Shown: piece after piece, positions 1,807-8,427 of the stretch
How positions within the stretch are numbered: position 1 is the stretch's first letter
Layout of the letters: each line of letters begins with the position of its first letter
Virus genome (UHGV): UHGV-0072536
Source of the DNA: a virus
DNA length: 18,794 bases
Strand: one strand, 5' to 3'
Program-made: the position numbers and the translations under genes
The notes under the pieces: generated by a model
Databases searched by the model: none
The model's input: the letters and a program-made list of their open reading frames with translations, nothing else
Told to the model about the DNA's origin: nothing

Positions 1807-1882
1807 GGCCCTTTAGCTCAGTGGTGAGAGCGAGCGACTCATAATCGCCAGGTCGCTGGTTCAAATCCAGCAAGGGCCACCA
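1807..1882 (+). tRNA. tRNA with anticodon CAU (Met or lysidine-modified Ile2; ileZ-like phage tRNA)
   Basis: Hand-folded cloverleaf: 7-bp acceptor stem ggccctt/aagggcc, D-stem gctc/gagc, anticodon loop ctCATaa, T-arm gctgg-ttcaaat-ccagc, encoded CCA. Confidence 0.85.
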
Positions 1883-1889
1883 TCACATA

Positions 1890-1966
1890 CCGCCATTAGC
1901 TCATCAGGATAGAGCGCCAGCCTTCGAAGCTGGTTGCGCGGGGTTCGAGTCCTCGATGGCGGTCCA
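1890..1966 (+). tRNA. tRNA-Arg (anticodon UCG)
   Basis: Hand-folded cloverleaf: acceptor ccgccat/atggcgg, D-stem gctc/gagc, anticodon stem ccagc/gctgg with loop ctTCGaa, T-arm cgggg-ttcgagt-cctcg, encoded CCA. Confidence 0.8.
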
Positions 1967-1979
1967 TTATCTGTACCCT

Positions 1980-2056
1980 GCGTTGTTAGCTCAGCCGGAC
2001 AGAGCAATTGCCTTCTAAGCAATCGGTCACTGGTTCGAATCCAGTACAGCGCGCCA
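1980..2056 (+). tRNA. tRNA-Arg (anticodon UCU, reads rare AGA/AGG; argO/argU-like)
   Basis: Hand-folded cloverleaf: acceptor gcgttgt/acagcgc with one G-U pair, D-stem gctc/gagc, anticodon stem attgc/gcaat with loop ctTCTaa, T-arm actgg-ttcgaat-ccagt, encoded CCA. Confidence 0.85.
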
Positions 2057-2967: not shown

Positions 2968-3303
2968 TTATGGACTTTGTTGTTTTAGTCCATAAGGACA
3001 TATTTGCAGAGTGCAACGGTTATTAAAGCATTCATTCAATACGTTATCTGTATTTGTAGGGCATTCCTGGCTGTTTTTGATTAAATTCCAGAATGTTTTA
3101 TTGAATGGTACTACGTTGTAAATGGTTACAGGTAGCACTTTGTTATTGAGCATGATGCCTGTGTGAGTCAGTGTAAATATACTTTCAGGAGGTAAGAAAG
3201 CATCCGATTGATACCAGATTATTAATTTTATTTTACTCCATATGACTGAAAAAGATATTCCGCATGATGGCTGGATAACTGTATCAATCACAATCCACTT
3301 CAT
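2968..3303 (-). CDS. Hypothetical protein in AT-rich cargo island
   Basis: 111-aa ORF with ATG and a good SD (aaggaa, 5-nt spacing) on the minus strand; Cys-containing, no recognisable family; a perfect 10-bp inverted repeat overlaps its stop (2966-2998). Confidence 0.4.
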
Positions 3304-3548: not shown

Positions 3549-3752
3549 ATGGTGGAAAGAACCATGGCATTTAAACACTATGATGTTGTCAGGGCGGCGC
3601 CGCCGTCAGATCTTGCGGAAAAGCTGACACATAAACTGAAAGAGGGCTGGCAGCCGTTTGGTAGTCCGGTGGCCATAACCCCTTATACCCTGATGCAGGC
3701 GATTGCAGCAGAAGGTGATGTGGTGGTCAGTGGTGCAACTGAGCCGGAGTGA
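3549..3752 (+). CDS. Small conserved phage protein often found upstream of lambdoid holins (possibly DUF1737-like)
   Basis: 67-aa ORF (alternative start at 3564, MAFKHYDVV); moderate GC; sits between cargo island and holin. Family name is from memory and unverified. Confidence 0.45.
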   Translation: MVERTMAFKHYDVVRAAPPSDLAEKLTHKLKEGWQPFGSPVAITPYTLMQAIAAEGDVVVSGATEPE

Positions 3753-3994
3753 TACTACGTCATCGTACTGGCCCGGCATTCCAGGCCATAAAGGACAGTC
3801 TGGCAGTGGGACTAAATGCACTGACGCTGACGGATATTACCAAAAATGCAACGTATGGCGTTGAGATAGAAAGTCTGGTGCTGGAGATAAATGCACCGGC
3901 ATCATCATAAAAAGTGAGCCAGTCAAATGGAAGGTATCGTTAAACTCACCGGTAGTGTCAGTGGATCGTCTGAGACGCTTGCATGAGTTATCAG

Positions 3995-4028
3995 AGCCAT
4001 CAGTAGTTAACTGGTGGCTTTTTTATTG
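3995..4028 (+). terminator. Rho-independent terminator-like hairpin upstream of holin
   Basis: 9-bp stem agccatcag/ctggtggct (one G-U), 7-nt loop, then ttttttatt; about 30 nt upstream of the holin SD. Confidence 0.55.
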
Positions 4029-4059: not shown

Positions 4060-4275
4060 ATGGACCAGATGGAAAAAATCACAACAGGTGTGTCATACAC
4101 CACGTCAGCGGTGGGAACGGGCTACTGGTTCCTGCAGTTGCTGGACAGGGTTTCCCCGTCTCAGTGGGCGGCAATAGGCGTGCTGGGGAGTCTGCTGTTT
4201 GGGCTGCTGACATATCTGACTAACCTGTATTTCAAAATCAGAGAGGACCGTCGTAAGGCGGCACGGGGAGAGTAA
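4060..4275 (+). CDS. S: Class II holin / pinholin, phage 21 S-type, with dual-start motif
   Basis: 71 aa beginning MDQMEK; SD gggag upstream. Near-identical over most of its length to S21 pinholin ([21 protein letters not shown]...[22 protein letters not shown]). The track ORF 3955..4275 is an upstream in-frame extension. Confidence 0.9.
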
Positions 4276-4279
4276 TTCA

Positions 4280-4594
4280 ATGACTCAAAACTATGAACTG
4301 ATTGTGAAAGGGATCCGCAATTTTGAGAATAAAGTTACGGTAACTTTAGCGTTACGGGACAAAAAACGCTTTGACGGTGAAATTTTTGACCTGGACATCT
4401 CGCTGGACCGTGTTGAAGGTGCCGCGCTGGAGTTTTATGAGGCAGCAGCCAGAAGGAGCATCAGACAGGTCTTCCTGGATGTTGCTGCCGGGTTATGTGA
4501 AGGGGACGAGCTGTTGCCAGAAACGCGCCCCTGTTCAGAGGCGCGGTATACCATAAAAATTAACAGTTCTGATAACTCGATTACAGGTTGTTAG
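4280..4594 (+). CDS. Hypothetical protein inserted between holin and endolysin
   Basis: 104-aa ORF with ATG 4 nt after the holin stop, SD ggggagag inside the holin 3' end (translational coupling); acidic, no transmembrane segment, no recognisable family. Confidence 0.6.
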   Translation: MTQNYELIVKGIRNFENKVTVTLALRDKKRFDGEIFDLDISLDRVEGAALEFYEAAARRSIRQVFLDVAAGLCEGDELLPETRPCSEARYTIKINSSDNSITGC

Positions 4595-4649
4595 CTTTTT
4601 GCAGTTGGCTTTCCAGTATCTTTCATTGGTAGCATCCTGATAAATATCC

Positions 4650-5183
4650 ATGAGCGCAAAAATCAAATACGGCCTGTCAGCTGCTGTTCTGGCGCTGATT
4701 GCTGCAGGCGCGTCTGCTCCTCAAATACTTGACCAGTTTCTGGATGAAAAAGAGGGTAACCACACTACGGCATACCGCGATGGTTCCGGTATATGGACCA
4801 TCTGTCGTGGTGCCACAATGGTGGATGGTAAGCCCGTCATACCGGGAATGAAGCTGTCGAAGGAAAAATGCGACCAGGTTAACGCTATTGAACGTGATAA
4901 GGCGCTGGCATGGGTGGAGCGCAATATTAAAGTACCACTGACCGAACCACAGAAAGCGGGTATAGCGTCATTCTGTCCCTATAACATTGGCCCCGGTAAG
5001 TGTTTCCCGTCGACGTTTTATAAGCGGCTGAATGCCGGTGATCGTAAGGGCGCATGCGAGGCGATTCGCTGGTGGATAAAAGATGGTGGGCGCGATTGCC
5101 GCATACGTTCAAATAACTGCTATGGACAGGTTATTCGTCGTGACCAGGAAAGCGCATTAGCCTGTTGGGGGATAGATCAGTGA
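4650..5183 (+). CDS. R: SAR endolysin (phage 21 R-type lysozyme, T4-lysozyme/GH24 fold)
   Basis: 177 aa; N-terminal weakly hydrophobic Gly/Ala-rich signal-anchor-release segment ([15 protein letters not shown]), then E...D...T catalytic region ([23 protein letters not shown]); conserved position after a pinholin. Confidence 0.85.
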
Positions 5184-5647
5184 GCAGAGTCGCAGCGATT
5201 ATTTATACTCTGGTTATCTGCACCATCGTCTGCCTGTCATGGGCTGTTAATCATTACCGCGATAACGCCATTACCTACAAAGCCCAGCGCGACAAAAATG
5301 TCAGAGAACTGAAGCTGGCGAACGCGGCAATTACTGACATGCAGATGCGTCAGCGTGATGTTGCTGCGCTCGATGCAAAATACACGAAGGAGTTAGCTGA
5401 TGCGAAAGCTGAAAATGATGCTCTTCTGCGGAAGCTTGATAATGGTGGCAGGGTGCTCGTCAAAGGAAAATGCCCTGTGCCATCCTCAGCCGAAACCTCC
5501 AGCGCCTCCGGCATGGGCAATGATGCCACCGTCGAACTCTCTCCAGTTGCTGGACGAAACGTTCTCGATATCCGGGACGGAATTATCCGCGACCAAACAG
5601 CACTGAGAACGCTTCAGGAATACATTAGGACGCAATGCCTTCGATGA
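5180..5647 (+). CDS. Rz: i-spanin Rz
   Basis: GTG start overlaps the endolysin stop (gtga, 5180-5183); TTG at 5165 is an alternative. N-terminal transmembrane segment then coiled-coil region; aligns with lambda Rz ([20 protein letters not shown]..., [32 protein letters not shown]). Confidence 0.85.
5400..5606 (+). CDS. Rz1: o-spanin Rz1 (outer-membrane lipoprotein) nested in the +1 frame of Rz
   Basis: 68 aa; signal peptide with lipobox (LIMVAGC), proline-rich mature part ([11 protein letters not shown]); entirely inside Rz in another frame, as in lambda. Confidence 0.8.
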
Positions 5648-5822
5648 TAGCGATAATTTTACTCATCATCCTTCACATCTGGCTCTGTAGACAGGGTGGT
5701 GATCACTTCTGGAGTAAATCCAGATTAAACATCTCATTGCTGATGCTTGATATTGAGCATCTGGCGCGCAGTAAGGGGCTGCGTTGAGATAAGAGCCAGT
5801 TCATTACAAATACCAGGATTTA

Positions 5823-5846
5823 GCCTCGCATTCGCGGGGCTTTTTA
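5823..5846 (+). terminator. Rho-independent terminator-like hairpin downstream of the lysis cassette
   Basis: 7-bp stem gcctcgc/gcggggc (one G-U), 4-nt loop, then ttttt. Confidence 0.5.
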
Positions 5847-7907: not shown

Positions 7908-8427
7908 ATGGAAGTCAACAAAAAGCAGCTGGCTGACATTTTCGGTGCGAGTATCCGTACCATTCAGAACTGGCAGGAACAGGGAATGCCCGTTCTGCGA
8001 GGCGGTGGCAAGGGTAATGAGGTGCTTTATGACTCTGCCGCCGTTATAAAATGGTATGCCGAAAGGGATGCTGAAATTGAGAACGAAAAGCTGCGCCGGG
8101 AGGTTGAAGAACTGCGGCAGGCCAGCGAGGCAGATCTCCAGCCAGGGACTATTGAGTACGAACGCCATCGACTTACGCGTGCGCAGGCCGACGCACAGGA
8201 ACTGAAGAATGCCAGAGACTCCGCTGAAGTGGTGGAAACCGCATTCTGTACTTTCGTGTTGTCGCGGATCGCAGGTGAAATTGCCAGTATTCTCGACGGG
8301 ATTCCCCTGTCGGTGCAGCGGCGTTTTCCGGAACTGGAAAACCGACATGTTGATTTCCTGAAACGGGATATCATCAAAGCCATGAACAAAGCAGCCGCGC
8401 TGGATGAACTGATACCGGGGTTGCTGA

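Follow-up and report, generated by a model that had tools for sequence, protein, structure and literature searches.

A short YdfR/DUF1327-family gene between the pinholin and endolysin genes of a lambdoid prophage: identity, neighbours and candidate functions

Introduction

Lysis cassettes of the phage 21/DLP12 type encode a holin (S), an endolysin (R) and an Rz spanin with an embedded Rz1. Escherichia coli K-12 has this kind of cassette in two arrangements: in DLP12, essD ends at the very base where rrrD starts, so that holin and endolysin genes abut, while in Qin the order is essQ-ydfR-rrrQ-rzpQ, with ydfR overlapping rrrQ by 4 nt. Another set of phage functions relevant here is directed at host RNA decay. 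PhiKZ Dip, T7 gp0.7 and T4 Srd are phage-encoded modulators of RNase E; Srd has the N-terminal half of the enzyme as its target.

YdfR of K-12 (b1555, P76160) is the namesake of a family of small prophage proteins, and it is the only member for which binding to RNase E and RNA has been reported. A genomic two-hybrid screen recovered residues 1-72 of this protein, and the fragment is reported to bind RNase E, in its catalytic N-terminal half, as well as RNase G (Gopel et al., RNA Biol 2026, PMC13232886). Chromosomally encoded Rne(1-598)-FLAG was recovered together with Strep-YdfR, whose eluate contained abundant DNase-resistant nucleic acid, in keeping with co-purification of RNA; the lysate had received no nuclease treatment, and an RNA bridge between the two proteins is possible (PMC13232886). 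In the same study, full-length YdfR gave a two-hybrid signal with Rne1-597 only, its overexpression altered few transcripts and left growth unaffected, and ydfR was essentially silent in standard growth (PMC13232886). In the phage literature searched, no paper addresses the gene and the name DUF1327 appears in one paper, in passing; ydfR is likewise absent from the main text of the envelope-screen paper cited for it.

This report concerns a gene of this family in a viral DNA of 18,794 nucleotides (UHGV-0072536), hereafter the window. The original prediction, made from the letters of the DNA, had presented it as an unrecognised and unusual insert between pinholin and SAR endolysin, either a regulator of lysis timing or a cargo gene. 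We provide an overview of the identity, organization, distribution and possible roles of the gene.

The lysis cassette and its surroundings

The window is the late region of a lambdoid prophage, with a Q antiterminator, tRNAs, a lysis cassette, and terminase, head and tail genes. Strain SCU-105 has a prophage that matches 95% of the window at 99.1% identity. The features of the cassette are collected in Table 1.

Table 1. Coordinates of the lysis cassette features in the window
Feature	Position	Strand	Basis
S21-type (class II) pinholin gene, 71 aa	4060..4275	+	PF04971, E 9e-33; maximum hydropathy 1.70
Shine-Dalgarno GGGGAGAG of the ydfR-family ORF	4265..4272	+	Within the last holin codons; anti-SD duplex -8.5 kcal/mol
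YdfR/DUF1327-family gene, 104-aa short allele	4280..4594	+	PF07041, phrog_2735, identical RefSeq genes
Conserved DUF1327 domain, codons 1-77	4280..4510	+	26 invariant columns, AlphaFold, dN/dS 0.24
Allele-specific tail LLPETRPCSEARYTIKINSSDNSITGC, codons 78-104	4511..4591	+	Predicted disordered, pLDDT below 50
55-nt spacer between ORF and endolysin gene	4595..4649	+	Flank comparison, homology breakpoints, R leader classes
Endolysin (phage lysozyme), hydrophobic SAR-like N-terminus	4650..5183	+	PF00959, E 1.1e-24; N-terminal hydropathy 1.78
Rz spanin gene	5180..5647	+	PF03245, E 6.7e-31; phrog_13; PGAP model in L001
Rz1 lipoprotein ORF (lipobox), embedded in Rz	5400-5606	+	ORF list
First terminator-like hairpin downstream of the cassette	5822..5841	+	Terminator scan

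The cassette shares with those of phage 21 and DLP12 the holin and endolysin families, the Rz gene with embedded Rz1, and the gene order. Its PF04971 holin has the dual-start motif of pinholins (Met1/Met4 in MDQMEK) and is encoded by a 216-nt gene whose identical copies are named 'class II holin family protein' by PGAP, and its lysozyme begins with a hydrophobic segment. The context is that of a phage 21-type pinholin/SAR-endolysin cassette, in which pinhole formation and SAR release are predicted. The Rz gene can be read from a GTG at 5180, overlapping the R stop, or from a TTG at 5165.

The gene under study starts with ATG, stops with TAG and encodes 104 residues ending in ...SSDNSITGC. The TAA of the holin gene (4273-4275) is followed by a gap of 4 nt (TTCA) and then by the ATG, and the anti-SD pairing of the holin-embedded ribosome-binding site is the strongest of the five cassette start sites compared; both the spacing and the site within the holin 3' end agree with what had been predicted, and they are consistent with a tight translational linkage of the ORF to the holin. 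On the + strand, from the holin start to the Rz end (4060-5647), no promoter-like or terminator-like site was detected, which is consistent with co-transcription of holin, ORF and endolysin; a second terminator-like hairpin flanks the cassette on its other side, at 3993-4021. The product was correctly described as acidic, soluble and ending in Cys: it has a pI of 4.85, a GRAVY of -0.26, 18 D+E versus 14 K+R and three Cys, with no signal peptide and no membrane segment (maximum Kyte-Doolittle value over 19 residues of 0.75, versus 1.70 in the holin and 1.78 in the endolysin N-terminus). The GC3 of the gene is 0.50, versus 0.65 for the holin gene.

Several other features of the region were recorded. 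Three tRNA genes lie downstream of the Q antiterminator, at 1807-2056 (+), with anticodons CAT, TCG (Arg) and TCT (Arg); ARAGORN calls the CAT-anticodon tRNA Met, and RefSeq has Ile for its counterpart in the matching prophage. Between the tRNAs and the lysis cassette there is an Rfam match to the small RNA STnc100 (2753-2942, +; 132 bits, gathering score 47), which ends in a strong terminator-like hairpin at 2912-2933. An ORF of 111 aa at 2968-3303 (-), with no Pfam match, corresponds to the SCU-105 gene annotated as 'anti-adapter protein IraM'. A 67-aa ORF at 3549-3752 (+) consists of a DUF1737 domain only. At a related Stx-type locus this domain forms the N-terminal part of a SASA-esterase protein of 649 aa (NanS-p type), and the SCU-105 copy of the 67-aa ORF is annotated as a pseudogene; the ORF is probably a truncated remnant.

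Identity and distribution of the gene

The gene is already known: it is annotated, named and present in K-12. The protein scores 132.8 bits with Pfam DUF1327 (PF07041), whose cut-off is 25 (E 5.1e-39, aligned to profile positions 1-90 of 93), and has a full-length match to phrog_2735 (E 3.5e-55), and RefSeq genes named 'YdfR family protein' by PGAP, for instance that of WP_000193273.1, are 100% identical to it at the DNA level; no NCBIfam match was obtained for the window protein. On the Pfam and PHROG matches and the dN/dS values given below, the ORF is judged to be far beyond a chance reading frame. It is practically certain that it represents a short YdfR/DUF1327 allele, encoding a small cytoplasmic accessory protein of lambdoid phages and prophages of Escherichia, Shigella and Salmonella.

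K-12 YdfR belongs to the same family and occupies the same slot. The two proteins (103 aa in K-12 and 104 aa in the window) are 65% identical overall and 82% identical over residues 1-72, and they share the same predicted beta3-alpha domain. Their tails are unrelated (...HERPHHKYL in K-12, ...SSDNSITGC in the window), and the gene overlap found in K-12 is replaced in the window by a 55-nt spacer before R. Other relatives are considerably longer. The long YdfR forms (259-296 aa; phrog_1085; P0131, P0202 and BCI49509.1 of Stx1_499) have the N-terminal domain in common with the window protein, and in P0131 and Stx1_499 the linker ...SEERYTIQINN... matches the window tail up to codon 102; they further contain a coiled coil and a C-terminal module, neither of which is present in the window protein.

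As regards its spread, the 315-nt gene is matched in 4249 of 5426 complete E. coli genomes (78%), at 7935 places in total, and the match covers at least 80% of its length in 2099 of the 5426. The view of an unrecognised or unusual insert does not hold against this frequency, the Pfam and RefSeq assignments and the presence of ydfR in K-12 Qin. The original prediction would have yielded to a demonstration that the ORF is a common, characterised component of related cassettes; common it is, and characterised barely, by one interaction study (PMC13232886). By tblastn, the gene is present in 101 deposited phage genomes, and its carriers include Perceval, mEp460, H-19B, BP-4795, Stx2 phage 86 and YYZ-2008. 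The Perceval protein is 100% identical to that of the window, the mEp460/Perceval allele shows 98-100% protein identity, and 594 sequences make up a protein cluster with 99% identity to the product of the window gene. The family as a whole is narrowly spread, with 60 matches among 1.84 billion representative proteins. In the species genomes of GTDB it was found in Escherichia and Shigella only, a host range that is a lower bound given the pattern-limited scan, apart from two metagenome-assembled genomes that resemble contamination. These two, labelled Veillonella parvula and Bacillota bacterium, carry the Escherichia-type holin-ydfR-lysozyme cassette and are most likely E. coli prophage contigs misbinned into other genomes.

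The position of the gene is remarkably constant. At all DUF1327-bearing loci whose neighbours were checked, the gene lies between holin and endolysin; the order holin-DUF1327-lysozyme was seen in FDAARGOS_1298, mEp460, K-12 Qin, BP-4795, Stx1_499, 49 IMG/VR loci and Salmonella contigs, and all eight GTDB loci keep both this order and the 4-nt gap after the holin. In three Salmonella-type contigs, a 103-aa form stands behind a holin of another family (PF16080, Phage_holin_2_3) at a distance of about 120 nt, not 4, and a PF00959 lysozyme is still found downstream. In BP-4795 and Stx1_499 an antirepressor gene is placed between R and Rz.

Two candidate relationships outside the family were discarded. 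A search of solved structures with the family profile suggested Rab5a, at an E-value of about 1, and an exhaustive phmmer search returned two giant repeat proteins that were judged to be probably compositional or beta-repeat noise. The latter (3128 aa with G2F repeats and 2356 aa with Big_9/cadherin repeats) match query residues 7-58 or 36-84 at about 30% identity in six to eight stretches.

Domain, tail and selection

The protein comprises a conserved domain of about 75 residues and an allele-specific tail of 27. Across 20-22 homologues 26 columns are invariant, among them K10, G11, R13, N14, E16, G33-E34, G47 and L50-E54, and all 26 are kept in the window protein; variability is found in the tail that follows. 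An AlphaFold model built on a 22-sequence alignment predicts a three-stranded antiparallel meander (5-15, 18-27 and 33-43) packed on a helix (50-74), with block-mean pLDDT of 73-89 for residues 1-70, whereas the tail (75-104) is disordered, with values below 50. The same N-terminal fold recurs in the model of a 287-aa long form, whose overall pLDDT of 46 makes the remainder unusable. Structure prediction, as had been proposed, has supplied a beta-beta-beta-alpha fold but no significant structural relative: Foldseek searches gave E-values of 0.01 or more in BFVD and 0.1 or more in the PDB, and the family has no sequence match in the PDB. A dsRNA-binding domain, for which the full alpha-beta-beta-beta-alpha fold with significant structural similarity was required, was not recognised in the model.

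Lengths vary widely among loci (103, 104, 110, 114, 116, 176, 263, 268, 296 and 328 aa), and the DUF1327 genes found in the slot fall into at least five tail classes. DNA homology to most other alleles runs from the holin gene through codon 84 (4531), where there is a recombination breakpoint, and is found again from 6-16 nt upstream of the R start; with the long Stx1_499 form it extends to codon 102 and then ends. Nonetheless, the tail of the 104-aa form is not a haphazard end. The terminal Cys is kept in all forms of this class that were examined, and this tail class is also carried by a deeply diverged N-domain (P0127, ...IAGC) and by a Salmonella form (P0105, ...VCAC). Codons 1-77 have a dN/dS ratio of 0.24 and codons 78-104 one of 0.16-0.25, the latter from about 8 synonymous and 8 non-synonymous differences. 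Judged by these ratios, both domain and tail are under purifying selection, and with the recurrent Cys tail they indicate that the 104-aa form is not a casual truncation.

The possibility that the gene is a decaying, non-functional leftover of a 263-296-aa two-module gene, to which the end of Stx1_499 homology at codon 102, the deletion of about 310 nt just downstream and the many length classes could point, is very remote, since the 104-aa form recurs with its conserved tail and Cys on diverged N-domains and in Salmonella, the tail dN/dS is low, the 99% identical cluster is large, and a locus with the two modules as separate genes in the opposite order (L021, see below) makes fusion as likely as truncation.

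With regard to the downstream spacer, its first part, from 4595 to about 4633, is the conserved 3' flank of the 104-aa allele, and the rest (4634-4649) is an AU-rich endolysin leader that lacks an SD. Relative to the related Stx-type locus and to one of the Salmonella-type contigs, a segment of about 310 nt with an antisense 79-aa ORF has been deleted from it. An antisense ORF of 43 aa at 4535-4666 (-) appears to be a remnant of this 79-aa ORF (phrog_21218), of whose region about 310 nt are missing in the window; in related loci the phrog_21218 ORF lies between ydfR and R (L096, 2809-3048, -). SCU-105 has another antisense gene (90 aa, phrog_2411; L004, 5090-5362, -) at the ydfR-R position.

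Occupation of the holin-endolysin slot

The survey of S-R cassettes that had been called for was carried out on 80 IMG/VR loci with a holin at least 97% identical to that of the window, 71 of which have enough downstream DNA to be classified. A DUF1327 gene fills the slot, 4 nt past the holin, at 49 of the 71 loci; 11 have an empty slot, with the endolysin 7 nt past the holin; and the other 11 contain an unrelated gene that encodes 158-214 residues, in the typical case 185 (MNHEEMNQRFSRLENEIAELNKK...). Among deposited phages, the holin family is found in 427 records and DUF1327 in 101, and in Stx2a phages two records have the DUF1327 gene versus 124 with the holin. The premise that S and R are directly adjacent in classical cassettes is borne out by the 11 empty loci, by DLP12 and by nearly all Stx2a phages. 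In prophages, an occupied slot is at least as common as adjacent S and R.

Cassettes in which the slot is empty or filled by a different gene argue against an essential role in lysis. From these comparisons, the gene is an optional accessory and not a component of the lysis machinery.

The 185-aa slot gene matches no Pfam family. Its family gave 170 matches; all those with a named source are from E. coli and are annotated as 'hypothetical'. The protein is the C-terminal module of the long YdfR forms: alone it measures 185-222 aa, fused behind DUF1327 the product measures 259-296 aa, and phrog_1085 (296 aa) is the sum of the DUF1327 domain and the 185-aa slot protein. At L021 the modules are separate genes in reversed order, the second being a DUF1327-only gene of 75 aa (Pfam E 2e-8).

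It is important to note that empty and occupied cassettes also differ at the start of the endolysin gene. In the empty cassettes the motif GGGGAGAGTAAGCTGATG precedes R (11 of 11 loci), and R uses in all of them the holin-embedded GGGGAGAG, with a duplex of -8.5 kcal/mol. In all occupied cassettes this SD serves the slot gene, whichever gene it is, and the R start follows an AU-rich, SD-less leader (...CTGATAAATATCC ATG; ...(C/T)TGATAAATATCC ATG or ...TTTAATATATCC ATG), with an anti-SD energy of about +0.5 to +0.6 kcal/mol. The window follows this second pattern of use: the embedded SD serves the extra gene, and the R leader (4625-4649) is SD-less, with an anti-SD energy of +0.6 kcal/mol. Whatever the role of the protein, occupation of the slot is accompanied by a different mode of translation initiation at the endolysin gene.

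Possible functions of the protein

The fragment of K-12 YdfR reported to bind RNase E coincides with the conserved domain, and 59 of its 72 residues (82%) are identical in the window protein; for this reason, a late RNase E and/or RNA binder is our best guess. By extension from K-12 YdfR, the 104-aa protein would be produced late in infection and would interact with RNase E and/or RNA. RNA decay would be tuned in this way, affecting for example how stable the long late transcript or its lysis-gene segment is, with no direct action on holin or endolysin. If the K-12 result transfers, the targeting of the catalytic half would resemble that of T4 Srd. Late modulation of RNA decay by this mechanism is a tentative proposal, somewhat more apt to fail than to hold, and to the whole explanation, that is, identity as a YdfR-family accessory together with the RNase E/RNA mechanism, we assign a probability of about 0.4. 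Several considerations weaken it. The interaction comes from a single study, of a paralogue; an RNA bridge may account for it, and few transcripts changed upon overexpression. With a pI of about 4.8 the domain is acidic, an uncommon property in RNA binders. Moreover, modulation of RNA decay leaves the conserved and distinct tail without a role and does not explain the strict linkage to the holin-endolysin junction.

This linkage speaks in turn for a direct role in lysis timing, one of the two roles originally suggested. The protein, made together with the pinholin, would here bind the basic cytoplasmic C-terminus of the holin, or the SAR endolysin, and shift triggering. The gene has a fixed place right after the holin, with the 4-nt gap at all Escherichia-type loci; it keeps its holin-endolysin position behind a different holin family in Salmonella; it takes a strong SD that R otherwise uses; and an acidic protein faces a basic holin tail. 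Nonetheless, lysis works without the gene, as the slot is empty at 11 of 71 loci, in DLP12 and in most deposited phages with the holin. Known antiholins and lysis regulators (of the S107/S21-71 type, T4 RI, P2 LysA/LysB) were compared, and the protein has no membrane or periplasmic domain of their kind, that is, neither a membrane segment nor a signal peptide. It has no similarity to lysis regulators in Pfam or PHROGs, and no match to lysis-category families of Pfam, PHROG or NCBIfam was found. Overexpression of K-12 YdfR produced no growth or lysis phenotype, in an assay that lacked the holin. On balance, such a regulator seems unlikely.

The other role put forward at the outset, that of a cargo gene ('moron') riding on the late transcript, would have it serve the phage or the lysogen in a function apart from lysis and RNase E, for example in counter-defence or phage exclusion, with the S-R junction acting as a tolerated insertion site. 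The diversity of the slot fits this well: it has unrelated alternative occupants and fusions, and the DUF1327 genes show many tail classes and a recombination breakpoint at codon 84. The very narrow host range (60 matches in 1.84 billion proteins; Escherichia and Shigella in GTDB, as a lower bound) and the difference in GC3 between the gene (0.50) and the holin (0.65) point in the same direction. On the contrary, the gene lacks a promoter or terminator of its own, and in K-12 ydfR is all but unexpressed in the lysogen-like state, which means that any benefit must fall in lytic growth. No PADLOC defence model was matched (E <= 1), and the proposal names no activity. We consider it doubtful.

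A further alternative is that the gene acts mainly in cis. By parting R from the holin SD, it would lower endolysin translation or change its timing, and the protein itself would be of minor importance. This would agree with the SD-less R leader of every occupied cassette versus the -8.5 kcal/mol SD of every empty one, and with the 4-nt ydfR/rrrQ overlap in K-12, which suggests coupling. It is, however, quite improbable as the main role of the gene, given that purifying selection on domain and tail and the 26 invariant residues indicate that the protein sequence matters, and that a mere spacer would need no conserved fold.

Returning to RNase E and RNA decay, the idea could be taken further. 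The YdfR family might be a widespread and so far unrecognised group of prophage modulators of the RNase E catalytic half, co-translated with the holin in most E. coli lambdoid prophages, that would reset host RNA decay just before lysis and thereby how stable the late lysis-gene message and the SD-less endolysin mRNA are, with the variable tails and the fused C-module tuning or retargeting the activity. In this extended form we regard it as an unlikely, speculative proposal.

Concluding remarks

As a discovery the gene matters little, for it is annotated and its DNA is matched in roughly four of every five complete E. coli genomes. Among E. coli prophage genes that lack a demonstrated function it nonetheless ranks with the most common, and the lysis cassette that houses it is of the best-studied kind. 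Natural slots that are empty, or that hold the N-module, the C-module or the fusion of both, are ready-made controls. The carriers of the gene include many Stx1 and Stx2c phages, and an effect on late mRNA or on the timing of lysis could bear on toxin release.
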